A stretch of DNA of 64,000 nt from Escherichia coli (GCA_902499925.1 GCA_902499925.1_4130.1); one strand, 5' to 3'. Counted from the first letter of the stretch, positions 39,686 to 55,535 are shown. The notes: generated by a model from the letters alone, not told the origin. Translations and numbers: made by a program.

Positions 39686-39690
39686 TGGAT

Positions 39691-40293: not shown

Positions 40294-40880
40294 AGTAGAT
40301 CCTTATACATTGCATGTATTCTTACAATGTCTCTGTAATAACTCATATCTTCACGATTATCATTAAAAACAGTAACACTGAATACAGCAGTACTAATTGA
40401 ACTATCAACAATGTACTCTTTTAATTTATTATAAAGATATATGCACTTAGTAGATGTATCATCCCACATAAGACTATTTTGAAAGATGTTTTCTTCTGTG
40501 TTAGGATATAAGTACTGATCAATCTTGTACCCCAATGAACTATCACAGTTTTTATATACAGAAATAGATGGGACATTCATATTGCACATAATACTAATAA
40601 CATTATCATTGTATGTAGAAATTAAACTGGTACTGGATGCTACACTTTCATCATAATTCAGTACTGAAATTCTTGCATTATCTGTGCAGTACAGATGTTT
40701 CATTCCACCTCTCATAGCCATAGTAAGAAATTTATCAGTGAACCATATTCCTTTTGTTTTCAGTATAGTTTCATGCATAAGATAAGTTTCAATGAAGATT
40801 TTTACACGCTCAAATGCCAAGTCAAGTTCATTGTACATAACGGATATCCTTCTGTAAAGAATCAATATATTCTTTAACAA
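40284..40880 (-). CDS. paralog family A member
   Basis: EENIFQNSLMW. Confidence 0.55.
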   Translation of the reverse strand: MLKNILILYRRISVMYNELDLAFERVKIFIETYLMHETILKTKGIWFTDKFLTMAMRGGMKHLYCTDNARISVLNYDESVASSTSLISTYNDNVISIMCNMNVPSISVYKNCDSSLGYKIDQYLYPNTEENIFQNSLMWDDTSTKCIYLYNKLKEYIVDSSISTAVFSVTVFNDNREDMSYYRDIVRIHAMYKDLLCY

Positions 40881-41019
40881 CTTGTTCCTGATACTGTGTA
40901 CCCAAATACATCAGTACTTTTAATTCTTTGAATTCAGTACCATATGAGTCGATTTGCATCATTCTTTTAGAGTATATACCGAATAGTTTATCAATATCAT
41001 CTTGGTTTATTATTTTCAT
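40828..41019 (-). CDS. paralog family B member (dispersed copy)
   Basis: LGTQYQEQVVKEYIDSL. Confidence 0.5.
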   Translation of the reverse strand: MKIINQDDIDKLFGIYSKRMMQIDSYGTEFKELKVLMYLGTQYQEQVVKEYIDSLQKDIRYVQ

Positions 41020-41224
41020 AAACCCTCTTCTGGATTAGTTCCTGTAAGTGCTGAATATAACCCTTCATTGCAACATCCTGTTTGTTAGAGCCAACGAAGA
41101 ACAATAGCTTAAAGTCATGGTAATCCATTTTTGGTTTAGTAGTGAACCATATGTCCCACACTGCACTCACAGTTCTCATGTATTCAATTCGATTAAATGT
41201 TTTTGAATACTTCATCGAAATCAA
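40997..41224 (-). CDS. paralog family B-like (dispersed copy)
   Basis: VGSNKQDVAMKGYIQHL. Confidence 0.45.
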   Translation of the reverse strand: MISMKYSKTFNRIEYMRTVSAVWDIWFTTKPKMDYHDFKLLFFVGSNKQDVAMKGYIQHLQELIQKRVYENNKPR

Positions 41225-41726
41225 CCTTTAATAAATTGATATTTAAATTACTGTTAAATGCCATCTGTAATTCCATATAGAACTGAATAATAGCATAGTC
41301 AGGATCAGTACAAGATAGTTGAAAGCACTGTTCTTCAAATGAATTGTAATTGTACTTAGGAATATTAATAGTACGATATAACTCTGGATAACCCCATATC
41401 ATAGTGTACACGTCAATTTCAGTACACTTTTTCTTAAAAGTCATCTGTCGAATAGTTTCAGATCTGGATTCAAGGTATACAACATTCTTATGAACGGCTG
41501 AACCAATTGAAAGCAATGATGTATCAATGACGTGTTTCTCACGTATATCACACTTCTGGAATGCACCATTCCCTTGTAACAGTTTATGGAAATCGTACTT
41601 CTCACTAATAACTGTACTAGGATCAATTAATCCAGTACTGCATTTTTTCAGTACTGGTACGATAGTGCGAATCTTTTTTGATAAATCTTGTAATGCATCA
41701 TAATCATTAATGTTAATTTTTCTCAA
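41193..41726 (-). CDS. paralog family A member
   Basis: EEQCFQLSCT. Confidence 0.55.
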   Translation of the reverse strand: MRKININDYDALQDLSKKIRTIVPVLKKCSTGLIDPSTVISEKYDFHKLLQGNGAFQKCDIREKHVIDTSLLSIGSAVHKNVVYLESRSETIRQMTFKKKCTEIDVYTMIWGYPELYRTINIPKYNYNSFEEQCFQLSCTDPDYAIIQFYMELQMAFNSNLNINLLKVDFDEVFKNI

Positions 41727-42169
41727 ACGGATGCCTCTTCTATAGTAACGAAATCAACTAACCTATCAAGTTTTTCAGTGTCTAGATAAAATATATCCAG
41801 TACTGACTTCTGATATAGTACACTAAATGTACATAGATTGTCAAGTGTTCCTTCATTATAAACAGTACTTCCCTGGAAGTACCCTTCTTCTGTACTCAGA
41901 GATAAAATATCAGAAATTTTAAAAGATTCTTCATTCTCATGACGCTCTATCGTAACTTCATCATATTTTCTGTTCAATGAAATATAATCGTATGCTAATT
42001 CAATAGTACTACAGTTGTTGTTGCTAGTGTCAAATAAAGAATCAATTGTAATCTTCGTACCATTAGAAACTTCTCTGCGTTTATCATCTACGTATTCAGG
42101 ATTTTCTTTGAAGAACTTAACAACTTTTAGAATATCATTTGCTTTCTTGATTGCACTTTCGTAACTCAT
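41723..42169 (-). CDS. paralog family A member
   Basis: EEGYFQGSTVY. Confidence 0.55.
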   Translation of the reverse strand: MSYESAIKKANDILKVVKFFKENPEYVDDKRREVSNGTKITIDSLFDTSNNNCSTIELAYDYISLNRKYDEVTIERHENEESFKISDILSLSTEEGYFQGSTVYNEGTLDNLCTFSVLYQKSVLDIFYLDTEKLDRLVDFVTIEEASV

Positions 42170-42608
42170 TTTTTCTGGACTCCATATATATCACCTGATT
42201 TAGTTCATATACATAATCTAAATCAATGAATATAGAATTATTAAAGTTCTCTTTCAGAAATGCATTAAAAACTACTAAAGCTCTTAATGCACTATTTGGG
42301 TATATAGTACTGTACTGGAAGTAAGCATCTTCTGAATTTAAGAATAGTACTTCTTCTTCGGTGAATTCAAAATATTTTCCACTTTCATCGATTGAATAGA
42401 AAGTTCCAGAATCCCATACGAAGTACTTGAATTCCAAATCATAATCATGGGACTCGTACTTATATTCATTACCTAATCCTAGAATATCTGTACCAACACT
42501 TATAGTACTAATATATGCCCCTTTATGGTCTAAGTACTTTACATTATTTTGAAAGAACTTTACTATATTAACTAATTCTTCAGCGTGCTTAAGATCACTT
42601 TCGTACAT
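42135..42608 (-). CDS. paralog family A member
   Basis: EDAYFQYSTIY. Confidence 0.55.
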   Translation of the reverse strand: MYESDLKHAEELVNIVKFFQNNVKYLDHKGAYISTISVGTDILGLGNEYKYESHDYDLEFKYFVWDSGTFYSIDESGKYFEFTEEEVLFLNSEDAYFQYSTIYPNSALRALVVFNAFLKENFNNSIFIDLDYVYELNQVIYMESRKNELRKCNQESK

Positions 42609-42922
42609 TATATTTCAACCTCTATATATTCTTGGGTAATTAAGTAATCCCAGTAGTACTTCACTTGTTTTTGTATCTCAATTAAAGCATAAAAATTAAT
42701 TCTCTTATCCCATACAAGTGATTCCTGAAAAAGAAATGTTTCATGATCATCTCTGTAATCACATTCAAGGAAGTCAGGAATATAATCACAATCGTGAAGA
42801 TATTCAATCATTAAAGATTCATTACATCTCCTAACTGCAAGATGTTGGAAATTATCATGATCGAAGAAATACATTAGACTAATTGTTCCAGGAATGTACT
42901 GAATACTGTATAAGAATTTCAT
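42608..42922 (-). CDS. paralog family A member
   Basis: ETFLFQESLVWDKR. Confidence 0.55.
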   Translation of the reverse strand: MKFLYSIQYIPGTISLMYFFDHDNFQHLAVRRCNESLMIEYLHDCDYIPDFLECDYRDDHETFLFQESLVWDKRINFYALIEIQKQVKYYWDYLITQEYIEVEI

Positions 42923-43362
42923 CGTTTACCCTTATATACTTCACGTACATATTCATAATCCAAATAAAATCTTGTACTATCAATACTTTTAAAGTACCAC
43001 ATAATAACTAAAGTATCTAGTACTTCATCATCATACAAAGTACTATTCTGAAAGTAATACTCTTCACTATCCCACGGACCTTTCAGTACTTCAAAGTTCA
43101 ATTTTAAAGGTCTGCTGCGATTATAAAAACGGATTTCACCACCATAAGCATAACTGATAAATTCTGCATCTGGATTGTATTGTGAAAAATCTGCGGGACT
43201 TTTGGAATTCAACCCAAGAATAACTGTAGTTGTAGCAAAATCACTATCCTTGTAGTAGTTACCATTCTCGGCTTTGTATACTTCTTCGAACTTCCCAGCC
43301 TTAATGTCTTCAATATATGCCTGTAGTTCTTTTGCTTTATCAAGAGCACTTCGTAATGACAT
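42919..43362 (-). CDS. paralog family A member (EEYYFQ subfamily)
   Basis: WDSEEYYFQNSTLY ... VIMWYFKS. Confidence 0.6.
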   Translation of the reverse strand: MSLRSALDKAKELQAYIEDIKAGKFEEVYKAENGNYYKDSDFATTTVILGLNSKSPADFSQYNPDAEFISYAYGGEIRFYNRSRPLKLNFEVLKGPWDSEEYYFQNSTLYDDEVLDTLVIMWYFKSIDSTRFYLDYEYVREVYKGKR

Positions 43363-43828
43363 TATCTTCCCCTACAGTATTCTCTACGTATTCATAATCG
43401 AAATAGAAACTACCAGAACCAATACTTTTAAAGTACCACATAATTACAATAACATCTAATTCTTCTTCATTGTACACAGTACTGTTCTGGAAGTAATATT
43501 CTTCACTATCCCACGGACCTTCTAGTACTGAATACGGAATGATTGTGTCATCAACATCACTATCTGTGTTGTAGATGGTAATATCTTCATTACGGCAATA
43601 ACTAATGTACTGATTGTACATATGATATTCACAGTTATCACTATCACCCGTATCAGTGTGTAGTACTAACGTTTCTGCATGTATCTCTGACTCATCATAA
43701 TCGTCGCGGTCTTTTACAAAAAATTCAGTATCAGATGTTTTATACACCCCAGGAACTGAACCTTCTTGTACCATAATCATGTACTCATGAATCTTCTTTG
43801 CTTCTTTCAATGCACTTTCTAATGACAT
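43340..43828 (-). CDS. paralog family A member (EEYYFQ subfamily)
   Basis: WDSEEYYFQNSTVY ... VIMWYFKS. Confidence 0.6.
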   Translation of the reverse strand: MSLESALKEAKKIHEYMIMVQEGSVPGVYKTSDTEFFVKDRDDYDESEIHAETLVLHTDTGDSDNCEYHMYNQYISYCRNEDITIYNTDSDVDDTIIPYSVLEGPWDSEEYYFQNSTVYNEEELDVIVIMWYFKSIGSGSFYFDYEYVENTVGEDNVITKCS

Positions 43829-43830
43829 TA

Positions 43831-44271
43831 CTAATCCCCTGTACTTAAATATTCACATGCTCCCCAGTCAAGGAAGAAGGGTTCAAAATTCAATTCCTTA
43901 AAGTACCACAAAACAACCAAGGAATCAAGCATTTCTTGGTTAAAAATAAGACTCTGTTGGAAGTAATACTCTTCAGTACCCCACGGCCCATCAAGTACCC
44001 CGAAGTCAACAGGTGTATTTGATGTGTCAAAAGTAATCTTAGTACCTGGAATATATACAAAAAAACTAGTATATTGACTACATGAAGAGTACTGTATAGT
44101 ATTGTCTTTATCATGGCCCATAAGTAAAATATCATCAGAGTATGTCTTTATACCTGATAGATAATACTCATTACCAAATGCACTTACTTTATCACCATAG
44201 AAACCACTTTTTATGTTATCGTGGAAGTGATGTATTTTGTGTGCCAGTTTAAGTGCACTTGCTAAACTCAT
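43831..44271 (-). CDS. paralog family A member (EEYYFQ subfamily)
   Basis: WGTEEYYFQQSLIF ... VVLWYFKE. Confidence 0.6.
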   Translation of the reverse strand: MSLASALKLAHKIHHFHDNIKSGFYGDKVSAFGNEYYLSGIKTYSDDILLMGHDKDNTIQYSSCSQYTSFFVYIPGTKITFDTSNTPVDFGVLDGPWGTEEYYFQQSLIFNQEMLDSLVVLWYFKELNFEPFFLDWGACEYLSTGD

Positions 44272-44738
44272 ATATCCTCTTTTATAACTCGTAGTAGATC
44301 CAAGTCCAAATAGAAGCTAGGACAATCTGTATTATTAAAGTACCACAGAATGACAAGCTTGTCAAGTACATCTTCCTCGTAGATAGTATTCTGCTGGAAG
44401 TAGAACTCTTCACTTCCCCAGTCATTATCCAGTACTGAATACGGAAGATGTTTCTCTGCTGCACCAGTTATAATGTCAGTATCTTGTATTAAAATATCAG
44501 CATCACGACAGAAGTACATGTAATTATCTTCCAAATTAACATCACACCCATTGAGTGTTGTTTCAGAAGAATCTAAGTTTTCTTCATACATGTGAATGTA
44601 CTCACTACTGTCATCGTATATCATTCGACAATAAGCTTTACCTTCCTTGAATAGATACCCATTGAGTCGATTGAGTACTATTTCCTTTTTACATAAATCA
44701 ATTAACTTAGCAATTTCTAATGCTCTTTCAAAACTCAT
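44268..44738 (-). CDS. paralog family A member (EEYYFQ subfamily)
   Basis: WGSEEFYFQQNTIY ... VILWYFNN. Confidence 0.6.
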   Translation of the reverse strand: MSFERALEIAKLIDLCKKEIVLNRLNGYLFKEGKAYCRMIYDDSSEYIHMYEENLDSSETTLNGCDVNLEDNYMYFCRDADILIQDTDIITGAAEKHLPYSVLDNDWGSEEFYFQQNTIYEEDVLDKLVILWYFNNTDCPSFYLDLDLLRVIKEDI

Positions 44739-44739
44739 A

Positions 44740-44925
44740 TCAACTCCTGTGTTGTGTCTTGATATAATCTCGGTACACCATGTGAATATTAGCTATATAC
44801 AATTCACTAATATCATATGTACCGAAGTACATGTCATTCCTAATGCTGTTGTTATGTCTAATATCAATTACGAATCGTCGAAGTATTGTATTCATGAATG
44901 ATTCCATTTGTTCTTTTTTATTCAT
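44740..44925 (-). CDS. small hypothetical protein
   Basis: 61-aa ORF filling the gap between array members. Confidence 0.35.
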   Translation of the reverse strand: MNKKEQMESFMNTILRRFVIDIRHNNSIRNDMYFGTYDISELYIANIHMVYRDYIKTQHRS

Positions 44926-45266
44926 AGCTTAAAACGATACCTATCTTTGGAATCAGTCTCTATACAGATTCTTCTATATTCTTTCATCTTCTGTTGGAGT
45001 TCAATGACTTCCTCTAGTGTACACAAGTACTTCTTGTCAAATATTAATGACTCTTGAAATATTTCAGCCTCACCCTGTACTGTTGTATAGTCTTTCATAT
45101 TTTCTACAACTGTTCCTTTGGACTGATAATCAATGAAGCTAAAGTAAGCACCATTAAATTTAATGTACTGATCCATTTTGTGTTCATAATCACCTTTGTT
45201 AAGATTGCAATACACTTCCAGTGAAGTACTAATCTTAGGTATAAACATAGAAAAATCATATTCCAT
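44922..45266 (-). CDS. paralog family A member (CNLNKGD subfamily)
   Basis: AEIFQESLIFDKKYLCTLEEV; track ORF 44922..45338 trimmed to internal Met (MEYDF). Confidence 0.55.
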   Translation of the reverse strand: MEYDFSMFIPKISTSLEVYCNLNKGDYEHKMDQYIKFNGAYFSFIDYQSKGTVVENMKDYTTVQGEAEIFQESLIFDKKYLCTLEEVIELQQKMKEYRRICIETDSKDRYRFKL

Positions 45267-45267
45267 A

Positions 45268-45633
45268 TTACTCACCTGCATTGAAATAATAACTACTTGT
45301 TGTTGGTGTAGATGTATCAAAGGTGTTTTCTTTAACATATCTCTTCATTTCATTTTGTATAAAAATCATATCTTCTATTGTACATGAGTACTTATTCTTG
45401 TCAAACACCAAAGAAGCTTGAAATAGTTCAACATCATCCAGTACTGTATAATCTGTAATACTTTCAGAGTTATAGTCGAAGTCATCATGCAATACATCAA
45501 TGAAATTAAAACACAAATCCGAGTACTGAATATATAAACTCAACTCATGTTCCGAATCACCCTTGACAAGATTGCAGCACAAATCCCACCCCGTTCTGGA
45601 CTTACAAACGTACATCGAATAATCAAATGTCAT
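45268..45633 (-). CDS. paralog family A member (CNLNKGD subfamily)
   Basis: VELFQASLVFDKNKY. Confidence 0.6.
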   Translation of the reverse strand: MTFDYSMYVCKSRTGWDLCCNLVKGDSEHELSLYIQYSDLCFNFIDVLHDDFDYNSESITDYTVLDDVELFQASLVFDKNKYSCTIEDMIFIQNEMKRYVKENTFDTSTPTTSSYYFNAGE

Positions 45634-45986
45634 TCTGGTATTCCTATATTGAATTTGTATTCTTGATTAATACTGACATTGCCTTTATTCAAAGAGTCAT
45701 ACTCTTTCATTTCATTTTGTATTGCAATAACTTCTTCAAATGTACACAAGTACTTCTTATCAAATACTAATGACTCCTGAAATAGTTCAGCGGCATCCAT
45801 TACTGTATAATCCGGCATATCCTGATGCGGATACTGTAATGAATTATAATCAATGAATGTGAATTTACCCTGAGTGAAATGAATATACTCATTTGCACTG
45901 TGCATTAAATCACCTTTGTTTAAATTACAAAAGTACTGAAAACTGTTCTTAAAAGAATGTACTGATATTACAAAATCAAATTCCAT
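45630..45986 (-). CDS. paralog family A member (CNLNKGD subfamily)
   Basis: AELFQESLVFDKKYLCTFEEV. Confidence 0.6.
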   Translation of the reverse strand: MEFDFVISVHSFKNSFQYFCNLNKGDLMHSANEYIHFTQGKFTFIDYNSLQYPHQDMPDYTVMDAAELFQESLVFDKKYLCTFEEVIAIQNEMKEYDSLNKGNVSINQEYKFNIGIPE

Positions 45987-46354
45987 CAGTACTCAACCTC
46001 TAAATTAAAAGATTCAGGAAACTTAGTCATATAATCTTCAGGATAGTTCTGCATTGTTTTGATCATCTCTACCTGTGTAGCACGGACGTATTCAATTGGT
46101 GCTCCTGGTAAATTCCAGACAGTACTTTCCTGAAAGAATTCCTCTTCTGACAGTACTGTAAGATTTACAAAATCATTACGGTAATTTTTTGAATCATCAT
46201 ATGTGAAGATTTTAAAAGACCCATTTTCATATAGTACAAGAACAAAATGTGAGAATTTTTGTAATGCACCACCCATTTCCACGTCCGCATGATTCAGTGT
46301 ACAGATGACCTCTTTTTTCCTCATACCGAATTGAATTCTAATTTCTTTTTTCAT
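45986..46354 (-). CDS. paralog family A member
   Basis: EEEFFQESTVW. Confidence 0.55.
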   Translation of the reverse strand: MKKEIRIQFGMRKKEVICTLNHADVEMGGALQKFSHFVLVLYENGSFKIFTYDDSKNYRNDFVNLTVLSEEEFFQESTVWNLPGAPIEYVRATQVEMIKTMQNYPEDYMTKFPESFNLEVEY

Positions 46355-46357
46355 AAA

Positions 46358-46494
46358 ATCTCCTTCAGATTAGTACTGAATTTGTACAGAATATTAGAAC
46401 TGTATCCATAATCAAATCACCTTTGTTTAAATTACAAAAGTACTGAAAACTATTCTTGAAAGAATGTACTGATATTACAAAATCAAATTCCATC
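46358..46494 (-). pseudogene. truncated duplicate of the 5' end of family A gene 45630..45986
   Basis: ~85 nt near-identical to 45903-45986; encodes MEFDFVISVHSFKNSFQYFCNLNKGDL then diverges and stops after ~45 codons; coordinates approximate. Confidence 0.55.
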
Positions 46495-46966
46495 ACTCTT
46501 CCCCTAGATTGAAATAATTACTAAAATTAGTTTCACCAGTTTTACACCATTTATCGATACAATCCTTGTGAATAAATTTGATCCTACGCTGGATTTCAAC
46601 TATCTCTTCTAATGTACAGTTGTACTTCTTATCAAATACTAATGCCTCCTGAAACAGTGCAGCCTCATCCATTAATGTATAATCCAGCATATCGGTTGCT
46701 TTACCCCTAAACCCAGTACTAAAATCCATCAAATAAAATTGAGAATTTTCGAACTTTATAAGTTTGTCCCTTGCGTAGTTTAAATCACGCTTGCACAAAT
46801 TACAGCACGTAATAAACTCACCAGTGTACATCCATGTCCCTATATGAAAATCTTTATATTTCATTTGCATCTTCATTTCAATTGTAATCTTTACTGTAAT
46901 TAATAAGGTAAACTCCAATATAAGGAGCACGTTCGCGGCGGGGTATTTTTTTGTTTCAGGAAACAT
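46493..46966 (-). CDS. paralog family A member (CNLNKGD subfamily)
   Basis: AALFQEALVFDKKYNCTLEEIV; true start probably internal (MKYKDF, near 46864). Confidence 0.55.
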   Translation of the reverse strand: MFPETKKYPAANVLLILEFTLLITVKITIEMKMQMKYKDFHIGTWMYTGEFITCCNLCKRDLNYARDKLIKFENSQFYLMDFSTGFRGKATDMLDYTLMDEAALFQEALVFDKKYNCTLEEIVEIQRRIKFIHKDCIDKWCKTGETNFSNYFNLGEE

Positions 46967-47078
46967 GAACTGTACTCTGAAAACACATTTTAAAACTTTA
47001 TATTAAACATATACCTTAACATGTTTTTCAGCGAAAATTTTTTTGACCCCCCCAGCGGCCTGTGAAAACGAAACGTCT

Positions 47079-47324
47079 CTATTTATTCAGCCTAGAAAGC
47101 TTGATTTCTTCAATCCTTTTCATCGCACAAAGCCTTCGACTCGTCCTCTCGTACATATTCAATACTCGTTGTAATGCATTATCTGTATTATCTGTAACTG
47201 CAATCTGAACCAAATATGTATCCTTCAAAATCGAATCCATCATGAATTCAAAACCTTTCACACTAAAGCAATATACCACTTCCGGCTCTTCAAACGTAAT
47301 CATAATTCCAATCCCCTGTCCCAT
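47079..47324 (-). CDS. hypothetical protein
   Basis: 81-aa ORF without family core. Confidence 0.4.
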   Translation of the reverse strand: MGQGIGIMITFEEPEVVYCFSVKGFEFMMDSILKDTYLVQIAVTDNTDNALQRVLNMYERTSRRLCAMKRIEEIKLSRLNK

Positions 47325-47493: not shown

Positions 47494-47656
47494 AATATGT
47501 CCTCTGCACAGCGTAGGTGTACTGTGAACTCAGCACCGTTAATAGGTAATCTATGTTGTAAGCACGATTTCCTCGTTGACTAGCACGACTAGAATAAAGA
47601 ATATTATCCACATATGTATCGAACTGTTCTTCAAATAACTCTTTCATCAGCACCCT

Positions 47657-48566: not shown

Positions 48567-49204
48567 AATCCTATTTCCTTTAAATCTTCCAAAAATGTTT
48601 CATAATCACTTAAGGAAAAAAAGATATCCGTATCGATGTTCGCATCTAATACATTATACAAATTCTGCATCTGTAACACATCAGGAGCATCAATCAATGA
48701 TTGCTGGAAATAGGCAGCTTCATCTTCCAAAATATCTCTGAATGTTCTCTCTCGTACTCTGTGGTGTACTGAATTGAATATTGATTTCTCATCCTTAAGC
48801 ATTGGTAGGTATCGAATGTACATGTGTTCTCTTAGCTCTGGACTGATGGAACCCCTGAACTGTAACACGTATTCGAAGCACATAGCAACATCCTGAAGGT
48901 AATTGGCACTGTAATTATTGCTGTAAACAATCTTATGACTTCTGAACTCATCATCATTTCTGAACCAATTGTCACCTACTTTGGTGTACTTATGACTAAG
49001 CAATCCACCCTCTAACGCTTTGATGATCTTCAAAATGTTGTGTGCAAATGCATATGATGTATTGTACTTGGCCTGATACATGTGTGCCTCATCTGCCTCA
49101 TTTGGCGTTAAAATATTCACTGAAATGATTATAACACAAAAGCACCACGATGTTAAGCACTCTGTTGTCAAAATCATCTTGTGATGCAGGATGCAAGGAC
49201 GCAT
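48563..49204 (-). CDS. paralog family A member
   Basis: EAAYFQQSLI. Confidence 0.55.
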   Translation of the reverse strand: MRPCILHHKMILTTECLTSWCFCVIIISVNILTPNEADEAHMYQAKYNTSYAFAHNILKIIKALEGGLLSHKYTKVGDNWFRNDDEFRSHKIVYSNNYSANYLQDVAMCFEYVLQFRGSISPELREHMYIRYLPMLKDEKSIFNSVHHRVRERTFRDILEDEAAYFQQSLIDAPDVLQMQNLYNVLDANIDTDIFFSLSDYETFLEDLKEIGL

Positions 49205-49293
49205 TGATGTTAAAATTCACTATATCATTGTGGAATTGGTATGTGAACAAATCAAACTTCGTATGCCTTTGTTTGATATCATCGGCGGTCATA

Positions 49294-49902
49294 TTATATA
49301 TTCAACCCTTTAACAATGGAAATAAATTCTTTGTATACATTTTCAGGTAAAGCTCTACTACCATAAAGAACACTAAATTCAGGTAACATATCCGAAATCT
49401 CTTTCGCTAAATTTATTTCATCCCTGAACATTTGCACAGGCATGATATCCTGTACCAATGATAACTGAAAGAAAAATGATTCAATATCTTCATGCACCTC
49501 TGAATTTAAATAAATCTCTTCTGGAAACTGGTCTGTACTGTAATAATAAAATACGTCAATTCTTTTTTCATTATTTTGTACAAGAGGTAAATTTCTTTCG
49601 TCTCTCTTATTAATATTTGTTTTCCATGACTCAATGTTATTCGGAACCCAAAACTCATAAGGTGTTTTCTCTCCTGAAATATTATCCAGCTTCAATCCAT
49701 AATATTCACCTTCGCCGTACTTCTGCTTCAAAACAATACCTGTACTACTGATGTTTACAATGTACGTATCAACAATCCCCTCTGCGGTAAAAGGAATATT
49801 TAACTCTGAACCTTCAGGGTACTTAGCATTGAATGCATCTAATGCTTTACTAAGCACTGGAATTGCACTTGTACTGTACTTCATTAATTGATCTATGTTC
49901 AT
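49294..49902 (-). CDS. paralog family A member
   Basis: ESFFFQLSLV. Confidence 0.55.
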   Translation of the reverse strand: MNIDQLMKYSTSAIPVLSKALDAFNAKYPEGSELNIPFTAEGIVDTYIVNISSTGIVLKQKYGEGEYYGLKLDNISGEKTPYEFWVPNNIESWKTNINKRDERNLPLVQNNEKRIDVFYYYSTDQFPEEIYLNSEVHEDIESFFFQLSLVQDIMPVQMFRDEINLAKEISDMLPEFSVLYGSRALPENVYKEFISIVKGLNI

Positions 49903-50483
49903 TTTAATGCCCCTGTAATCATACTGAAATTTGAACGATACATATCGTACACTGTACTTTCTTTCTTGTGCACAATGAAATCATAAAGATCGACGAATGC
50001 AGGAATAATAATCTTGAATGATTTATTCTTGTACGTCCCAAACTCAACGGTGCTCAATTTTGCAACGAGCATAGCAACAAAGATTTCTTCTGGACTATGC
50101 AATGTACTGTACTGAAAATAATCCTCTGCACTTATTTCACCCATTGCACTAATATCTTGTACTTGTAATGAAATTTTAAGATAATAATAAGAAAAATCAT
50201 TCTCTGATTTGTTTTGTATTTTGTATTGGTCTATGGGTACATCTCTCATGAACCATAAACGGTCCTGACCATAAAAAGGAATGATTGAATTTGGGGAACC
50301 CAAAAAAACTTCTTCTCTATCAATATCCTTTAACTCAATTTGCATACTGGATGAATTGGCAATAATTAATTCATTAAAAATGTAATGAACCTTGTGTACC
50401 ATCTCTTGTACTGAATTGAAATCATCTGGTATTTTAAAATTTTCCATAGGTATCTCCTTAAAAATGATTACACATTGTACCAT
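49899..50483 (-). CDS. paralog family A member
   Basis: AEDYFQYSTLH. Confidence 0.55.
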   Translation of the reverse strand: MVQCVIIFKEIPMENFKIPDDFNSVQEMVHKVHYIFNELIIANSSSMQIELKDIDREEVFLGSPNSIIPFYGQDRLWFMRDVPIDQYKIQNKSENDFSYYYLKISLQVQDISAMGEISAEDYFQYSTLHSPEEIFVAMLVAKLSTVEFGTYKNKSFKIIIPAFVDLYDFIVHKKESTVYDMYRSNFSMITGALK

Positions 50484-50519
50484 GCATTTGTACTGGTGTC
50501 AAACAAAAAAGCCCATATC

Positions 50520-51017
50520 TTACGATACAGGCATGTTTATTTGAATTTCATTGTACAAATCATCAATATATAGACATGAAAACGATAAACTTTCTTTAAC
50601 TATATTGTTGTGATAAAGCATTTTAAACACTATATAGAAAAATAAATCAATATCATCATGTACTAAATTCTGCTGGAACCACCACTCTTCTGTTAAATCT
50701 TGTGCATTAAAATCATCAGGAACTTCAATTGACGACATATCAACATCTTCTTTGTACTCAAACCACATGTCGTCATTCGGATAACGTTCATGTTTTTCTG
50801 GGTAACAATTGCTGGGATTAAATGCTAAAATATAAAATGTCGTCGCAGAATGTTCTTTATTAAAAAATGAATTATTCCACACCTGATACCTTTCACCAAC
50901 ATCAATCTCTTTTGATACTGATGTTATTGCACATAATGTACGATATATTGTTTCTATTTTGTGAACAAATTTAAAGGCTGCATCTAAACTGAACTCTAAA
51001 TCAGACATGCGGTGCAT
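50520..51017 (-). CDS. paralog family A member
   Basis: EEWWFQQNLV. Confidence 0.55.
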   Translation of the reverse strand: MHRMSDLEFSLDAAFKFVHKIETIYRTLCAITSVSKEIDVGERYQVWNNSFFNKEHSATTFYILAFNPSNCYPEKHERYPNDDMWFEYKEDVDMSSIEVPDDFNAQDLTEEWWFQQNLVHDDIDLFFYIVFKMLYHNNIVKESLSFSCLYIDDLYNEIQINMPVS

Positions 51018-51337
51018 AAAATTATCTCAACTAAAATAAGAACGGTATTGAATTCGAGGCAACCTTTGATACCTTGATTGTACATGTACTTTGCTACTAC
51101 ATATTTCTGTACTAAATTATAATTATTAAATTCCTCAAAATTGTAATTTAGAATGAAATTTGTACTCAAAAATAACTTATGCATCTCTAATGCACTCTGA
51201 TAATATTTGTACAACTCACTGATATCAATACTTTGTAAATCACTTTGTTCATATGTATGATAAGGAATGGCGTCAATTTCAATATTATTAAACCATTCTC
51301 TTAACTTATTAATATCAAATGTATTATTCAGCTTCAT
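50996..51337 (-). CDS. hypothetical protein
   Basis: 113-aa ORF in array, no clear core. Confidence 0.4.
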   Translation of the reverse strand: MKLNNTFDINKLREWFNNIEIDAIPYHTYEQSDLQSIDISELYKYYQSALEMHKLFLSTNFILNYNFEEFNNYNLVQKYVVAKYMYNQGIKGCLEFNTVLILVEIILCTACLI

Positions 51338-51890
51338 AACTCAATACCTCCATTAAGCACTCATAAACACCATCAATCGCATAAGCACAAAAACTGAAAT
51401 TAATTTTGTTATTCTTGTGTAATGGACTATTGTATACTGTACTCATTATGACATTATAAAATAACAAACGCACTGGTACAAGCATTGAACCTTGGAAAAA
51501 TTCTTCCTCTGATTTATATGTATTGTACTCTATTGCTTTGTTCGTTTCTGTATCATATTTTACCATTACTAACGGGGCATTTTTATTATACCATGCGTAC
51601 TCTAAATCATTCTTTCCAATAACAGCACCAGGGGCAAAATCCAAAAGACTAATAACACTACGGGCATTTGGGGTATCAGGTGTATTGAATCGTTTATCAA
51701 AATGTCTCGTGCACGCAATATATGTATTGTACTTCGATGGAATAATACCAATACATTTGTGGATGTGACGCTTGTAATCTTTCTGTGCATTATATAAGGC
51801 TGCAACAATACAAGCTAACTTTTGTCCCATAAGGATTGCATTAGCGTAGGTGTACTGAATTTCATTGTACTCACTGTACGTCGATGTCAT
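51324..51890 (-). CDS. paralog family A member
   Basis: SEEEFFQGSML. Confidence 0.55.
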   Translation of the reverse strand: MTSTYSEYNEIQYTYANAILMGQKLACIVAALYNAQKDYKRHIHKCIGIIPSKYNTYIACTRHFDKRFNTPDTPNARSVISLLDFAPGAVIGKNDLEYAWYNKNAPLVMVKYDTETNKAIEYNTYKSEEEFFQGSMLVPVRLLFYNVIMSTVYNSPLHKNNKINFSFCAYAIDGVYECLMEVLSYEAE

Positions 51891-52182
51891 AATACGCTCC
51901 TACCTCATAATCTTTCTTGCTTTGGAATTCATTAACGACTTTCTGTATATTTCTTAATGTTACCATGTCATGTCCGTACATGTCAACCACCAATTGCATT
52001 TGGAAAAATTCTTCTTCAGATAATGTATTAAAATCTATAAAATAATCCGTAACAACCTGTGCGTCTAAATTTGCCATGTACCATTGATTGGTATCGACCT
52101 CTTTAACCAAATTCCATGCATCTGAATCGGATTCTAATTCTACATATATTAATGTTAATGTATAAAGCATTTTATACTTCAT
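51871..52182 (-). CDS. paralog family A member
   Basis: LSEEEFFQMQLV. Confidence 0.55.
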   Translation of the reverse strand: MKYKMLYTLTLIYVELESDSDAWNLVKEVDTNQWYMANLDAQVVTDYFIDFNTLSEEEFFQMQLVVDMYGHDMVTLRNIQKVVNEFQSKKDYEVGAYYDIDVQ

Positions 52183-52732
52183 AACTGTATCCTTGCATTA
52201 AAAGATCATAAGCAATATCAACTAATTCTAAACGAATGAAAAATTTTAAATTATCTTTCAATGGATTCAAATGCATTGTACTAAACAACATAAGATACTT
52301 CATTTGATTTGTATTGTATATTAGGGATGTCTGAAATACTTCTGCTTCATTGTAAGGATCAATGAATTTTATACCTTCTTCACTGTAATCCGTTTTGGAA
52401 TTCTGATATATAAAATAATCATCACCAGCATTATACCACAAATAACCTTCAAAACTAGAATCAAATTCTGAATTTTCATTTCGCATTAAAGGTGATACTG
52501 AAATTGGATTTGAACCAACTGTTGCACAAACCTCAAGGAAAGCATCTTCACTTCCCTTAACTTCCTCTTTGATTTTATCATTGTACTGACCTGCAAAACC
52601 AGCTTTTACTTCCAAATATAAACTACTACCAACTTTATTAATTCTTAAAAGGGAACTCTGTACTGTATTCGCATTATTCAGCACAAACACTATTGTGCAA
52701 ATCTTATGTACCAATAACTGAATATCATTCAT
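52172..52732 (-). CDS. paralog family A member
   Basis: EAEVFQTSLIY. Confidence 0.55.
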   Translation of the reverse strand: MNDIQLLVHKICTIVFVLNNANTVQSSLLRINKVGSSLYLEVKAGFAGQYNDKIKEEVKGSEDAFLEVCATVGSNPISVSPLMRNENSEFDSSFEGYLWYNAGDDYFIYQNSKTDYSEEGIKFIDPYNEAEVFQTSLIYNTNQMKYLMLFSTMHLNPLKDNLKFFIRLELVDIAYDLLMQGYSYEV

Positions 52733-52733
52733 A

Positions 52734-53063
52734 TTATACCCTTGTGCATTTAAGCACTGTAACTAAACCTTTTGCGTTCTTGAAATGCATTAACGATAAT
52801 GATGCATCAACGTATTGTAATGATACAATTACATCTTCTGATGTGTTCTTGAATAAAAATTCCTGTACTGAATTCTCACCAAAATAAATGTACTTTGTGG
52901 ACTCAATTTGCAAATACGGAATTTCTGTACTATGTAAAAAGATATCAATTTTATCATTGTTTTGTAATCTGCAATCAAATTGATATACTTCATAATCAGC
53001 GGCCTGTACTGTATTAGAGAACATTGATAAAATAAATGTTAGAGCTAAAATAATTTTATTCAT
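52734..53063 (-). CDS. small secreted/periplasmic protein candidate
   Basis: N-terminal signal-peptide-like MNKIILALTFILSMFSNTVQA followed by AD; 109 aa. Confidence 0.5.
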   Translation of the reverse strand: MNKIILALTFILSMFSNTVQAADYEVYQFDCRLQNNDKIDIFLHSTEIPYLQIESTKYIYFGENSVQEFLFKNTSEDVIVSLQYVDASLSLMHFKNAKGLVTVLKCTRV

Positions 53064-53396
53064 ATTGGTATTCCTTAATTTGGTGGATTTGGATGTAATA
53101 AATGATCTATATAATTTAAATGTTCTATTGTAACTAATGAAAGATAATAATTGTAATCATCAATACCACCCTTTAAATGTATATTGTAATACATCTTGAT
53201 ACTTACTAATAAAGAATCATTTAAATCATTTATTGCTTTTGTATTAACGTCTTTCATTAATGTTCTTCTCTTAAAAAACGCTTAATGGCACAATCTAAAT
53301 AAAAATCATAATACATCATATCTCGATTCTTAACCCATACACAATAATCTGCATTAATATTTCTTAATAATATATTCATATTATAATCTTCACTCC

Positions 53397-53786
53397 CTAA
53401 TCGTGCCATTTAATAGGATACTCCGTTCCATTTATTGTATAAGATATAATCCATCCGTAATGAATAGGACTATTCTTTTCTCCTTTAGGAATAAAATATA
53501 AAGATGTACTAGGATTATAACTGAATAAATCTTTATTGTCAAATGTAAAATGAGATAACGTTATCTTCCTTGAACTTGGACTAATAACATTCTTAACACC
53601 AAACACGGTATCTTGATATTTCTCTGAAAATTCAAACAATGCATCTGTAATTAAATCATTGAATTCTATACATAATGGTTTAAAAGAACCATCATTATCT
53701 TTGAATTCCTTATATAAAGAGCTTCTTGTATTCAAAAGAAATATTACTTTTTTAAGATCCTGAACTATTTCTGGATTCATATTCAT
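53397..53786 (-). CDS. hypothetical protein
   Basis: 129-aa ORF. Confidence 0.45.
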   Translation of the reverse strand: MNMNPEIVQDLKKVIFLLNTRSSLYKEFKDNDGSFKPLCIEFNDLITDALFEFSEKYQDTVFGVKNVISPSSRKITLSHFTFDNKDLFSYNPSTSLYFIPKGEKNSPIHYGWIISYTINGTEYPIKWHD

Positions 53787-54003
53787 TTATCTCATCCTGT
53801 AACTTAAGCATCAAAATTTGCATATTAATTTTTTGTACAAGGTGATTGAGAAATTTCTGTACTGTATCTTCTTGTTCTTTTGACCCAAGATAAAATAACA
53901 TATTAAATTCCGATAACCTCAGAGCAAAATCGTCATCTCCCCCTTGTAAACAAAAATCCCTGTACTTTGATGCATACAAATAACGGTTTATTTTTTTGTA
54001 CAT
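53752..54003 (-). CDS. paralog family B-like (dispersed copy)
   Basis: LGSKEQEDTVQKFLNHL. Confidence 0.45.
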   Translation of the reverse strand: MYKKINRYLYASKYRDFCLQGGDDDFALRLSEFNMLFYLGSKEQEDTVQKFLNHLVQKINMQILMLKLQDEINEYESRNSSGS

Positions 54004-54031
54004 TTATATTGCATCTCCTTTAGGTATATTC

Positions 54032-54343
54032 TTATATGTCAATTTCAATGATCCTCCCTGACATACCTTGTATTAGCTTATCATACATATCGAGCATCAC
54101 TTTTTGAATACTAATTAATACTGGCATCGTGCAAATATCAATGTCGTATATTAAGCTGTACTGGAATAATTCCTCTTCCTGCATTTGTACTAAATTAGGT
54201 AAAAGATAATTGTCTGCCTCTTCATCCTGGTACTTGAAATGCATAACGCCATCCTTTTTGTACAAAAGAATGTCAATATCACCTAACTCTTCTGCATAAC
54301 CAAAAATACATATACTCGATGTTTTTGCTATATTAAATTTCAT
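54032..54343 (-). CDS. paralog family A member
   Basis: EEELFQYSLIY. Confidence 0.55.
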   Translation of the reverse strand: MKFNIAKTSSICIFGYAEELGDIDILLYKKDGVMHFKYQDEEADNYLLPNLVQMQEEELFQYSLIYDIDICTMPVLISIQKVMLDMYDKLIQGMSGRIIEIDI

Positions 54344-54352
54344 ATTCTTCTC

Positions 54353-54703
54353 TTATATGTGGAATTCACATACGTGTTGAACAAAATTCTTTGGAAGATG
54401 ACAATGTGTAATCATCTGCTTTTGTACTTCCTTCATATCTTCGAATGTAAATCCTAAAGAATCATCATGTACTAACAAGTACTGAAACTCTTCTTCTTCA
54501 GAGATAGAACATAAATTCGGTACTGAAATTGTTTTTGTTTTTCTTGCACCTAATTTCCAATGAAAAGAATTATTGCATTTTCTGTACTCAAATATCTTCA
54601 ACCCAGAACCTGTATTAAAATCAGCTACTACAATGTAACATGAATTCTTACGTACAATACAATTGAACTTACGCATTATCTCCACCTCTCTCCGTCTGTA
54701 CAA
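54353..54703 (-). CDS. paralog family A member
   Basis: SISEEEEFQYLLV. Confidence 0.55.
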   Translation of the reverse strand: MYRRREVEIMRKFNCIVRKNSCYIVVADFNTGSGLKIFEYRKCNNSFHWKLGARKTKTISVPNLCSISEEEEFQYLLVHDDSLGFTFEDMKEVQKQMITHCHLPKNFVQHVCEFHI

Positions 54704-54921
54704 GAGTACTGGTACGTTGTCGTTAGGGTAGGAACCATGTTTGTAATGGGCATATTGTTAACAATAACCGTAACAGGCATAAGAATCGTCTCTTCTCTAC
54801 TCTGTCCTGTCCTTGTGCAATTCATCTTCTGCATTTCATCTGAATCCATGAAATACAATACAAATGGTGCAATCCCAAGAACAATACACAAGACGATAAG
54901 GAAATTTAAAAAATTTAACAT
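54676..54921 (-). CDS. small membrane protein
   Basis: 81 aa, hydrophobic N-terminal helix MLNFLNFLIVLCIVLGIAPFVLYF. Confidence 0.4.
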   Translation of the reverse strand: MLNFLNFLIVLCIVLGIAPFVLYFMDSDEMQKMNCTRTGQSREETILMPVTVIVNNMPITNMVPTLTTTYQYSCTDGERWR

Positions 54922-54990
54922 AATTTTTACCCTCTATTTGAACGCTCAAAAAGTACAGGTACTATAGCACTAAAGAAAAGTACTGTCAAG

Positions 54991-55356
54991 CTAGTATTGC
55001 ACTGTTCTAATGAAAGTACCTGAACTCATGGATTTAAGCTTATGAACCTCTTCCTGTATACCCTTGAGCAACTCTAAAGGCATTGGTACATCATGTACTA
55101 AGCTGTACTGAAAGTATTCTTCTTCAGATAAAGTACTAACATCTGGGACGCCAATTTTAGTTAGATAATCTTGATGTGTTGACCAATAAATTATATCTTC
55201 AGTACAATTGTACTCCCCATATACTGAACAATATTGATGAATATCTTTCCTGTACCCTTGAGCAATAAAGAACTTATCTACGGCATTAATAGAACTCACT
55301 TCGATTGTTACAGTACTTGAGCTTGTTTTTCCTTTATTATGCATATTAATCCCCAA
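54991..55356 (-). CDS. paralog family A member
   Basis: STLSEEEYFQYSLV. Confidence 0.55.
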   Translation of the reverse strand: MGINMHNKGKTSSSTVTIEVSSINAVDKFFIAQGYRKDIHQYCSVYGEYNCTEDIIYWSTHQDYLTKIGVPDVSTLSEEEYFQYSLVHDVPMPLELLKGIQEEVHKLKSMSSGTFIRTVQY

Positions 55357-55532
55357 ATTAGATATCGAACACTATCAGCTTGATAGTTAGTTCCTACTGT
55401 GTGTTTTAATATTAACTCATCTTTCAGTACTGAACATTCTGCATTAGATATAGGAAGTGAATTAATTCTTTGAATTTCTGGTCGCAACATACCGCGAATC
55501 TTGCGATAATCTTCGTATGATAATCTTTTCAT
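55308..55532 (-). CDS. paralog family B member (dispersed copy)
   Basis: VGTNYQADSVRYLIWGL. Confidence 0.5.
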   Translation of the reverse strand: MKRLSYEDYRKIRGMLRPEIQRINSLPISNAECSVLKDELILKHTVGTNYQADSVRYLIWGLICIIKEKQAQVL

Positions 55533-55535
55533 GGT

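Follow-up and report, generated by a model that had tools for sequence, protein, structure and literature searches.

Four dispersed family B minigenes as probable long-standing members of the family A gene array in an Asteriusvirus jumbo phage

The four family B minigenes dispersed within the family A array of this phage are probably old members of the array, fixed at their positions and co-transcribed with their family A neighbours; under this preferred reading, interleaving of the two families would be ancestral, the large B array would have expanded later, turnover would act on both families, and they would serve as repertoires rather than as obligate pairs. The window, i.e., the whole 64,000-nt stretch of DNA analysed here, shares 95–97% DNA identity with fEgEco12 and vB_Ec-M-J, and its source is an Asteriusvirus, a PBECO4/121Q-like jumbo coliphage. 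Family A (43 genes) and family B (30 genes, 26 arrayed and four dispersed) together comprise 73 genes over ~34 kb, near one tenth of the unique genome. All genes of both families in this region lie on the minus strand, their ORFs abutting or overlapping in gapless runs. Of the unique DNA inward of the left terminal repeat (~21 kb), they occupy the initial ~34 kb; the B array comes first, its edge lying ~70–95 bp inward of the point that corresponds to this repeat's end in fEgEco12. Family A members, identified by an iterated HMM, share the consensus D..x..EExxFQxS, in which F and Q are invariant.

27323..55880, minus strand: family A span, 43 HMM-detected members of 103–213 aa, short and long forms
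55870..61621, minus strand: family B tandem array, 26 minigenes of 66–92 aa, mostly overlapping by 4–40 nt

A family B HMM trained on the 26 arrayed genes alone was scored against all 460 ORFs (≥35 aa) in the six reading frames. It retrieved precisely the four ORFs that an earlier note on this DNA had named as B copies embedded in the A array, all present on the minus strand as listed; the best ORF after them had E=0.34.

40828..41019, minus strand: second gene of an internal BB pair, 63 aa, motif LGTQYQE; full-length HMM match (E=5.8e-13), PHROG 4148 match (E=1.3e-16)
40997..41224, minus strand: first gene of the internal BB pair, motif VGSNKQD; HMM match over the C-terminal 34 residues (E=1.2e-5)
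53752..54003, minus strand: diverged dispersed B gene, 83 aa, motif LGSKEQE; HMM match over the C-terminal 37 residues (E=1.8e-5)
55308..55532, minus strand: dispersed B gene, 74 aa, pI 9.3, motif VGTNYQA; full-length HMM match (E=8.2e-11), PHROG 4148 match (E=1.3e-9)

All four proteins (63–83 aa) carry the near-invariant G-T/S-x-x-Q preceding the last helix. Aligned with arrayed members, 40828 and 55308 match end to end, and 40997 and 53752 over half the domain, well beyond the short LGTxxQ motif, the aligned 34–37 residues covering helix 3, the motif, and helix 4. PHROG 4148, matched by 40828 and 55308 (the only dispersed copies submitted), is likewise the one to which the tested array members belong.

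Positional orthologues of all four in other Asteriusvirus genomes (72–98% amino acid identity, except 44% for 40997 in A4), dN/dS of 0.18–0.84, and Shine–Dalgarno sequences before three of the four show that these are real genes, evolving under purifying selection. Orthologues of 40828 are 79–89% identical; those of 40997 (longest ORF, 75 aa) begin at Met4, are 94–97% identical at the amino acid level in four genomes, and yield dN/dS of 0.22–0.29. Gene 53752, preceded by a strong Shine–Dalgarno sequence (AAGGAG), has orthologues with 72–98% identity in four genomes and is deleted in SD-1_S14, and 55308 has orthologues in fEgEco12 (93%) and A4 (72%) and is missing from PBECO4, 121Q, and SD-1_S14. 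For families A and B, dN/dS is 0.23–0.41, compared to 0.12 for other genes of the window.

The family A genes near the dispersed copies are as follows.

40284..40880, minus strand: A gene, 198 aa, directly downstream of the BB pair, without a close paralogue (A HMM E=2.1e-18)
41193..41726, minus strand: A gene, 177 aa, directly upstream of the BB pair; cross-genus anchor of the A–B block
54032..54343, minus strand: short-form A gene upstream of 53752 (A HMM E=1e-13); reciprocal best hit of RaK2 28911–29246
54353..54703, minus strand: short-form A gene, a start-codon-to-start-codon cassette with presence/absence among relatives
54991..55356, minus strand: short-form A gene downstream of 55308 (A HMM E=4.2e-21), related to 54353 and 55536
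55536..55880, minus strand: short-form A gene with the B array on one side and 55308 on the other (A HMM E=6.9e-18); best paralogue 54991–55356, RaK2 counterpart 27954–28289

Genes 55536, 54991, 54032, 41193, and 40284 each match the A profile with E≤2.4e-10 and carry the EExxFQxS motif. The placement of dispersed copies between A genes thus holds for 55308, which lies between two short-form A genes in the gapless gene run of the B array, and for the 40997/40828 pair; it does not hold for 53752, as its downstream neighbour at 53397–53786 belongs to PHROG 29252 and has no family A match (E=4.5). The A genes flanking the BB pair and those flanking the border B genes proved mutually unrelated beyond the family level. 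Similarly, the suggestion that the families intermingle rather than form separate islands is correct as to the existence and genus-wide conservation of the mixing and overstates its extent: 26 of the 30 B genes remain in one block, A–B adjacencies number only six in the window, and the B genes form four runs, compared to 20.6 ± 2.1 in shuffled gene orders.

The same A/B layout is seen in all six mapped Asteriusvirus genomes, with the BB pair at the same place in each, and in divergent metagenome contigs, where the B proteins are ~30% identical. Mixing is greater still in Klebsiella phage RaK2 (gene map BBAAA..BB..AA..AAAAA..BB..AABBBB..BBB..AABAAA.AAAAAAAA), with many small B clusters between A clusters. 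Cross-genus reciprocal best hits in similar local contexts exist for A genes 41193, 54032, 54353, and 55536, and for B gene 53752, the latter with RaK2 30185–30409 via the 121Q orthologue; for the short B proteins, such orthology assignments have weak scores (E ~1e-4). The RaK2 counterpart of 41193 (L011, 33116–33649, also 177 aa) is 28% identical over the full length, including FQLS, and its identity with the 121Q orthologue is 31% over 172 aa (E=2e-13). Three B genes follow it directly. Of the three sites with dispersed B genes, two correspond to RaK2 sites next to an orthologous A gene. Since the RaK2 orthologue of 41193 also directly precedes B genes, the dispersed copies appear to be ancestral and the big B array, a derived expansion. 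Array members score 35–89 bits against paralogues in the same genome, compared to 22–35 bits against RaK2, and the pairs with the highest scores are direct neighbours or have a single gene between them. Interleaving of the families, with co-transcription, would thus be old and common to Asteriusvirus and the genus of RaK2, the 26-gene array having arisen by later tandem expansion in Asteriusvirus, and family B seems to accompany family A in at least two genera. In fENko-Kae01 and fHe-Yen9-04, the A array is present, and no family B gene was found in the 96 kb and 27 kb searched, respectively; a 41193-type gene is also missing from the fENko-Kae01 regions searched. In the three genera checked (RaK2 left out), the A array is syntenic, early, and upstream of methyltransferase and cytidylyltransferase genes.

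At the border of the two families, whole genes of both are gained or lost precisely, with microhomology at Shine–Dalgarno/ATG junctions. For example, A gene 54353 is present here and in fEgEco12 and A4 and cleanly absent from PBECO4, 121Q, and SD-1_S14, where the empty site joins GGTGGAGAT to GAAATTT. The closest paralogues are neighbours, and a truncated gene copy is likewise found in the A array.

46365..46496, minus strand: truncated duplicate derived from the 5′ end of family A gene 45630–45986 (85 nt at 96%; seen in repeat family D17 and the ORF translation), a remnant of recent unequal recombination

No duplicated A–B cassette exists in the window. Hence, the shared recombination mechanism proposed earlier is upheld in the general sense of gene-precise border gains and losses at microhomologies, and not as joint duplication of A and B. 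Copy number and order may shift in both families via tandem duplication and microhomology-mediated, gene-precise deletion or insertion at Shine–Dalgarno/start-codon junctions.

A shared expression context, also proposed in the earlier note, agrees with the sequence: the genes lie on one strand in abutting or overlapping ORFs, a sequence scan found no terminator separating any dispersed B gene from an A gene next to it, and sigma70 promoter/terminator cassettes are kept at orthologous sites across Asteriusvirus.

61622..61649, minus strand: sigma70-like promoter TTGACT-16-TATTAT before the first B gene, both hexamers kept in fEgEco12, 121Q, and PBECO4
54961..54989, minus strand: sigma70 promoter TTGACA-17-TATAGT with TG, in a 69-bp gap, kept in five out of five comparison genomes while the spacer diverges
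50474..50532, minus strand: intergenic cassette in the A array, with a sigma70 promoter after a terminator hairpin (sequence and conservation)
38431..38460, minus strand: consensus sigma70 promoter with 12/12 matches and an extended −10, in the A array (sequence and conservation)
34554..34615, minus strand: terminator hairpin and sigma70 promoter cassette in the A array (sequence and conservation)

Thirteen promoter matches reach at least 11/12 of the consensus, all on the coding strand and several in the few intergenic gaps, and two of them are paired with hairpin terminators. Promoter-like matches in total are not enriched relative to shuffled sequence, and weight is given to the strongest matches and their conservation alone. 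As the promoter at 61622..61649 abuts the longest-ORF start, the first B gene probably starts at the ATG at 61594. The promoter at 54961..54989 is predicted to drive an operon containing A genes 54353 and 54032 and B gene 53752. Conserved coding-strand −35/−10 promoters and co-directional genes without internal terminators are features of early operons read by the host RNA polymerase (sigma70), implying that both arrays may be read as shared early operons. In related phages, sigma70-type promoters and early transcription occur within or beside the terminal repeat, CBB (PMC5259590) and PA5oct (PMC7318152) being the analogues for the A/B region; we infer early timing and operon structure from the sequence and from these relatives. 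As transcription in one direction from host-type sigma70 promoters would yield long polycistronic early operons, each dispersed B gene would share its transcript with the A genes beside it, probably with coupled translation.

Family B consists of ~70-aa, mostly basic (pI 8–10), four-helix proteins; an AF2 model of array member 59225–59443, with the dispersed copies as alignment rows rather than targets, has four helices at pLDDT 97. Family A proteins are mostly acidic, with a predicted alpha/beta fold and the invariant FQ. The predicted family A fold has no PDB match, neither family has Pfam, NCBIfam, or PDB sequence matches, and fold comparison gave no informative match: family A shows no structural similarity to solved members of SUKH-type or other known immunity or inhibitor folds, nor family B to solved helix-turn-helix or other small DNA-binding domains. 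The families are unrelated to each other (profile–profile hhalign probability, 0.2%). Proteins of the window match PHROG 4148 (family B) and PHROGs 9317, 12674, 13866, 15629, and 28680 (pieces of family A), all annotated "unknown function"; splitting of family A over several profiles hides there the size of the single superfamily. RaK2 structural proteins all map to two other clusters, not to A or B (PMC3622015), and we infer that A and B proteins are non-virion, early, fast-evolving binders for host takeover or counter-defence.

That 40997 and 53752 are chance ORFs with a short motif, as might be thought from their C-terminal-only alignments at ~20 HMM bits, is a practically negligible prospect given E ~1e-5 against 0.34 for the next ORF, the alignment through both helices and the motif, conserved orthologues with dN/dS of 0.2–0.6, Shine–Dalgarno sequences, and a second B gene beside the 53752 orthologue in relatives, matching it at E=6e-9. 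The four ORFs would thus be genuine, old family B members at fixed positions in the A array. Recent escape of the dispersed genes from the big B array by recombination or transposition is hardly credible, even though conserved short motif-coding stretches provide within-family microhomology, gene-precise indels occur at the border, and 55308 is found in some genomes only. It is largely refuted, as the dispersed genes are much closer to their positional orthologues (72–98%) than to array members (30–50% for the best paralogues, over partial lengths), the BB pair is fixed in six out of six genomes, RaK2 counterparts exist, and 55308 is present in A4; since A4 is the most divergent genome, the absence of 55308 elsewhere is more simply explained by loss.

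The possible functional pairing of A and B, suggested in the earlier note, is not supported as a general one-to-one rule: there are 30 B genes for 43 A genes, 26 B genes lack an adjacent A gene, two genera have A without B in the stretches searched, and the co-occurrence and adjacency everywhere that would mark an obligate pair are not seen. A weaker variant, in which a dispersed B protein works with the product of the adjacent A gene (as a complex or chaperone/adaptor pair) and selection keeps them adjacent, is conceivable, though on balance unlikely. Its prime candidate is a 41193-type gene followed by B genes. This order is retained in RaK2 despite ~70% divergence and heavy turnover elsewhere, the 41193-type gene and family B are jointly missing from the fENko-Kae01 regions searched, most B proteins are basic and most A proteins acidic, overlapping ORFs permit translational coupling, and the B domain occurs in fusions (in EC.P1 and UB, a protein of 269 aa where the B and A genes meet; in RaK2, proteins of 115–128 aa). 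However, 26 of 30 B genes and 38 of 43 A genes have no neighbour from the other family, A arrays without B occur in the searched regions of two genera, loss of 55308 and 54353 in close relatives was independent of the adjacent genes, and the A genes flanking different B sites are mutually unrelated. Conservation of the 41193-type gene with its B block from Asteriusvirus to RaK2 is suggestive of a local functional link, and the adjacency could reflect functional coupling rather than inertia, while in general A and B would act as repertoires. A broader reading, rather improbable in our view, makes A and B two arms of one early counter-defence/host-takeover system of Rak2-like jumbo phages, with A proteins as new-fold acidic binders with an invariant FQ site, B as a helical adaptor fusible to other domains, and the 41193-type gene with its B block as the ancestral unit of both arrays; ~10% of the genome would then amount to a library of diversified effectors, akin to the ASFV/poxvirus multigene families. 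It seems highly improbable that B proteins, scattered through the early region, are nucleic-acid-binding regulators that each tune how nearby operons, A genes included, are transcribed or translated, though their small size, all-helical structure, and mostly basic nature (pI 8–10), and the location of their genes where the early region begins, would fit this.

Large eukaryotic DNA viruses carry multigene families at their genome ends (MGF110/360/505 of ASFV; terminal families of poxviruses, "genomic accordions"). These share with A and B tens of diverged, tandem, interleaved paralogues beside terminal repeats, copy number variation between close strains, and evolution faster than that of core genes; unlike them, A and B reside in a bacteriophage, have unrelated sequences and folds, and form polycistronic overlapping ORFs, and their role in host range or immune evasion is putative. 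In hyperplastic early regions of T4-type phages, promoter-early stem-loop (PeSL) cassettes reportedly mediate modular gene shuffling (Arbiol et al. in 2010). Shared features are small early ORFs on one strand, intergenic hairpin and sigma70 promoter cassettes, and whole-gene presence/absence between relatives, but each of A and B is a large family of paralogues, not a set of unrelated ORFans. Cassettes flanking the mobile genes, as expected for such shuffling, are not seen: the cassettes at 50474–50532 and 34554–34615 exist, none flanks a dispersed B gene, and the indel junctions are Shine–Dalgarno/ATG microhomologies. Polymorphic toxin systems include tandem arrays of immunity proteins, e.g., SUKH/SMI1-KNR4, which are likewise diverged small cytoplasmic proteins, and the acidic family A would fit inhibitor-like binders. 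In Bacillus phage G, a zinc ribbon has undergone lineage-specific expansion to about 35 copies (PMC7824862), similarly the multiplication, within one jumbo lineage, of a single small domain to tens of copies, but with a different fold, in one family rather than two interleaved ones, and with cross-genus conservation undescribed.

Genes listed in databases as unrelated hypothetical proteins thus fall into just two families, family A being shown to form one superfamily whose predicted fold is absent from the PDB, and the comparisons with relatives show interleaving that appears ancestral, not accidental. The two families make a defined target set for how nucleus-less jumbo phages take over or disarm Enterobacteriaceae, with gene 41193 and the BB block as the obvious first test case. 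Phages of this kind are in therapy development, and strain-to-strain gain and loss of A and B genes could bear on their host range.

The presence of family B-type genes inside the family A array, claimed by the earlier note, is confirmed. An HMM trained solely on the 26 B genes of the array (55870-61621) was run on all 460 ORFs of 35 aa or longer from the six reading frames; besides its training sequences, it matched only four ORFs (E=0.34 for the next ORF):

Dispersed family B genes and their matches to the B-array HMM
40828-41019, minus strand, E=5.8e-13, full-domain alignment
55308-55532, minus strand, E=8.2e-11, full-domain alignment
40997-41224, minus strand, E=1.2e-5, aligned from helix 3 through the motif to helix 4
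53752-54003, minus strand, E=1.8e-5, aligned from helix 3 through the motif to helix 4

With two copies aligned across the full domain and two across helix 3, the motif, and helix 4, the similarity between dispersed and arrayed B genes extends past the short motif to which, as the earlier note had allowed, it might have been confined. The family A members found by iterated HMM search, 43 in all, lie within 27323-55880. A genes are found on either side of B 55308 (genes are named by family and start coordinate) and of the tandem pair 40997/40828; the upstream neighbour of B 53752 belongs to family A, but its downstream neighbour does not (PHROG 29252). By sequence criteria, the four dispersed ORFs are real genes. 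Their positional orthologues in other Asteriusvirus genomes have 72-98% amino acid identity, with dN/dS of 0.18-0.84, a Shine-Dalgarno sequence is recognizable in three of the four, and the fEgEco12 and 121Q annotations list them as CDS. B 40997-41224 differs from its PBECO4 and 121Q counterparts by dS of only 0.05-0.08, far below the median A gene (0.5-0.6), which suggests a recent inter-lineage exchange of the segment or a constraint at the DNA level. The proposed intermingling of the families, as opposed to separate islands, is real but limited, as the B genes form four runs in the gene order vs. 20.6 +/- 2.1 runs in shuffled gene orders.

Megablast assigns the window to the genus Asteriusvirus, which comprises PBECO4/121Q-like jumbo coliphages and belongs to the Rak2-like group, with fEgEco12, vB_Ec-M-J, and Turkey3 being 95-97% identical to it along most of its length. 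The window minus strand, which carries every gene discussed here, corresponds to the plus strand of fEgEco12, whose direct terminal repeat of 20,993 bp has been confirmed by restriction mapping (PMC13070987). Window positions 61600-61700 align to fEgEco12 20,982-21,082, placing the repeat boundary at about 61,689, and hence the region 61,7xx-64,000 is the inner end of the left repeat. Its GC content is 0.42 vs. about 0.32 in the arrays, and the first family B gene begins 70-95 bp past the repeat boundary, in unique DNA. The inner repeat end (62943-63478) contains three strong matches to the sigma70 promoter consensus, one of them within a hairpin with a 12-bp stem:

Sigma70 consensus promoters at the inner end of the terminal repeat
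63471-63444, coding strand, 12/12 matches
63165-63137, coding strand
63024-62996, coding strand

A 323-bp gap at 23444-23766, devoid of coding-strand ORFs, opens with the promoter-like TATGATATAAT and a hairpin. Neither Rfam families nor tRNAs were found in the window.

The ORFs of both arrays abut or overlap, typically by 4-40 nt, ATGA overlaps being common. Promoter-like matches as a whole are no more numerous than expected from shuffled sequence. However, the 13 that fit the consensus at 11 or more of its 12 positions are all on the coding strand, several of them in the few intergenic gaps, where two promoters are coupled to a hairpin terminator:

Predicted promoters and terminators of the arrays
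61649-61622, minus strand, sigma70 promoter preceding the first B gene
54989-54961, minus strand, sigma70 promoter in an intergenic gap
50532-50474, minus strand, terminator and promoter in an intergenic gap
38460-38431, minus strand, sigma70 promoter in an intergenic gap
34615-34554, minus strand, terminator and promoter in an intergenic gap

The hexamers and hairpins are kept at orthologous positions in fEgEco12, PBECO4, 121Q, A4, and SD-1_S14, even where the spacers have diverged. Since the -10 element of promoter 61649 ends one base ahead of the longest-ORF start (61621), the ATG at 61594 (MRILTQEE...) is the more likely start codon of the first B gene, in agreement with the 65-aa annotation in fEgEco12. 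The promoter at 61649 would transcribe one gapless run, consisting of the B array followed by A 55536, B 55308, and A 54991; a second predicted operon, starting from promoter 54989, would comprise A 54353, A 54032, and B 53752, and the BB pair would lie within a continuous series of A genes. Thus, the suggestion of a shared expression context is supported at the level of overlapping ORFs and conserved coding-strand promoters. Early expression of the arrays is supported by analogy with phage CBB, where RpoD-type promoters cluster in the short-ORF region adjoining the terminal repeat (PMC5259590), and with PA5oct, where early transcription by the host RNA polymerase covers genes of the long terminal repeat (PMC7318152).

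Judging from family maps drawn in transcription order (A, B, or a dot for any other gene), the INTERLEAVING of families A and B is old. In the window, 26 B genes are followed by ABA.AAB....AAA.AAAAAA...AAAAA.AAAAAAAABBA.AAAAAAAA...; the corresponding maps read ...AABA.AAB... in fEgEco12, ...AA.ABB... in PBECO4, ...A.ABB... in 121Q, and ...AB.AABB... in A4. The internal AABBA block is found in five of the six mapped Asteriusvirus genomes, and in A4 the BB pair still follows an A run and precedes a non-family ORF (AABB.A). Divergent metagenome contigs show a similar mixture: one (L010) reads.BBBBBBBBBBB.BBBBBB.BABAAAA..A.B.AAAAAAAA, and another (L009) has an A gene within a B array. For every dispersed B gene, the positional orthologues are far more similar than any paralogue.

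Both families are also present in Klebsiella phage RaK2 (genus Alcyoneusvirus), far more mixed than in Asteriusvirus (...BBAAA......BB......AA..AAAAA..BB.......AABBBB....BBB..AABAAA.AAAAAAAA...). A 41193 (177 aa) and RaK2 33116-33649 (ORF398, 177 aa), which is immediately followed by three B genes, are reciprocal best hits with 28% identity over the full length, including FQLS (E=2e-13 via the 121Q orthologue). The same relationship holds for B 53752 and RaK2 B 30185-30409, and for the short-form border genes A 55536, 54032, and 54353 and RaK2 27954, 28911, and 32779. The arrayed B genes score 35-89 bits to paralogues from the same genome and only 22-35 bits to RaK2, and in their strongest pairs the two genes are direct neighbours or have a single gene between them. 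Taking together the mixing in RaK2, the cross-genus reciprocal best hits, and the array scores, we conclude that mixed A/B clusters are likely ancestral, the dispersed B genes being survivors of that state, and that the 26-gene B array appears to be a later tandem expansion. The last terminal-repeat gene before the B array (61841-62050) has a RaK2 orthologue (locus L011, 36542-36751; 34% identity, E=1e-9) situated between a BBB cluster and a long A array, and hence rearrangement has changed the position of this gene relative to the arrays.

In both families the nearest paralogues are neighbours, e.g., the A clusters 42919-44738 and 44922-46966 and the B pairs 60782/60573, 58037/57814, and 56950/56744. 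An 85-nt repeat (45904-45988 and 46411-46495, 96% identity) places a copy of the 5' end of A 45630-45986, encoding its N-terminus, in a truncated 43-aa ORF at 46365-46496 (upstream repeat copy), by all appearances a remnant of recent unequal recombination within the A array. Close relatives differ by whole genes at the B/A border: the window, fEgEco12, and A4 have both B 55308 and A 54353, and PBECO4, 121Q, and SD-1_S14 have neither. The A 54353 empty-site junction (GGTGGAGAT|GAAATTT) delimits a start-codon-to-start-codon cassette with microhomology at the SD/ATG. As A4, the most divergent genome, has both genes, loss in the PBECO4 lineage seems the simpler reading. B 53752 is deleted at an ATAT microhomology in SD-1_S14, and PBECO4, 121Q, and A4 have an extra B gene beside its orthologue. 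Such whole-gene gains and losses in both families indicate that the same process edits A and B, in line with the shared recombination mechanism proposed earlier. The flanking A genes of the three B sites turned out to be related to one another at the family level only; thus, no A-B unit was copied around, and a duplicated A-B cassette was rejected.

Neither family belongs to any named protein family tested, and sequence searches of Pfam, NCBIfam, and PDB were empty for both. In PHROGs, B corresponds to phrog_4148 and A is divided among at least five families, all annotated as of unknown function. A common origin of A and B via the shared [FY]Q motif was ruled out (hhalign profile-profile probability 0.2%). 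Single-sequence tblastn finds B only in Asteriusvirus and, separately, the RaK2 group, which understates its distribution, so that profile scans of individual loci are needed; an exhaustive HMM search of 1.84 billion proteins yielded only 96 B cluster representatives, about half of them just 20-50% identical to the sampled genomes. Foldseek matched the A model to BFVD entries for uncharacterized proteins of RaK2, GAP32, Serratia BF, Yersinia fHe-Yen9, and Erwinia jumbo phages, several at probability of about 1. Nine IMG/VR loci with the degenerate DNA pattern GTN[YF]QE...Y[IM] contain no A or B genes and were rejected as chance matches.

The invariant A motif (S/T)EE(G)YFQ(G/x)S (e.g., residues 108-116 of 43340-43828) resembles a TEV/3C-type protease site (ExxYxQ|G/S), most closely in RaK2 members such as L011 37976-38398. 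We treat this as coincidence, as Ser is at +2, not +1, in most A members, and the AF2 model has a short N-capped helix with F probably buried; the motif is probably a structural element. The A-like ENKO_077 of fENko-Kae01 (L021 24144-24629; HMM E=3e-4) carries the depositor note 'identified with LC-MS/MS analysis', which does not imply virion association, since enzymes such as DNA ligase bear an identical note. B domains also occur fused to other domains. A 269-aa fusion lies at the B/A border of EC.P1 and UB and at L006 10001-10810 (E. coli-associated ~350 kb contigs), its C-terminal ~170 aa being 40% identical to a RaK2 protein (record 251682-252212); the RaK2 fusions of 115-128 aa (L011 20148-20534, 23813-24160) have a common C-terminal extension of ~50 aa. 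Two non-family genes lie inside the array:

Non-family genes inside the array
54676-54921, minus strand, 81 aa, hydrophobic N-terminus, PHROG 8826, immediately downstream of conserved promoter 54989
52734-53063, minus strand, 109 aa, signal-peptide-like N-terminus (MNKIILALTFILSMFSNTVQA)

The functional pairing of A and B, also raised by the earlier note, lacks support as a general rule. Only six A-B adjacencies are seen among the 30 B and 43 A genes, neighbouring genes have been lost independently of each other, and A arrays occur without B in the searched stretches of two phages. The fENko-Kae01 array, of at least 24 A genes, starts 23 bp past the terminal repeat, and a search of 96 kb of this phage found no B gene, even when the profile combined Asteriusvirus and RaK2 sequences; in Yersinia phage fHe-Yen9-04, a smaller A-like array lies upstream of the same methyltransferase and cytidylyltransferase genes, with no B gene in 27 kb searched. 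A narrower link, in which an A 41193-type gene and the B genes form a local functional module, is conceivable and, in our opinion, rather unlikely. Consistent with it are the retention between genera of an A 41193-type gene followed by B genes, the joint absence of the A 41193 type and B from the searched fENko-Kae01 regions, the opposite net charges of the families, and the fusion of B domains (269 aa in EC.P1/UB, 115-128 aa in RaK2) to other domains.

RaK2 virion proteins identified by mass spectrometry all map to two other gene clusters (PMC3622015), and so A and B are presumably not structural proteins. The constraint on both families is relaxed (dN/dS 0.23-0.41 vs. 0.12 for other window genes). 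Given their position, promoters, non-virion status, family size, strain turnover, and relaxed constraint, A and B are most likely, with modest confidence, early host-takeover or counter-defence binders. In behaviour they seem to be most like the multigene families at the genome ends of ASFV and poxviruses and the hyperplastic early regions found in T4-type phages. The occurrence of B genes within the A array is thus a confirmed, modest organizational fact, whose earlier interpretation is partly supported by the sequence data. The wider context is more interesting: two large, anciently interleaved families, predicted to be co-transcribed, for which we found no description in the searchable literature, and one of which, family A, has a predicted fold that is absent from PDB and conserved across the Rak2-like jumbo phages.
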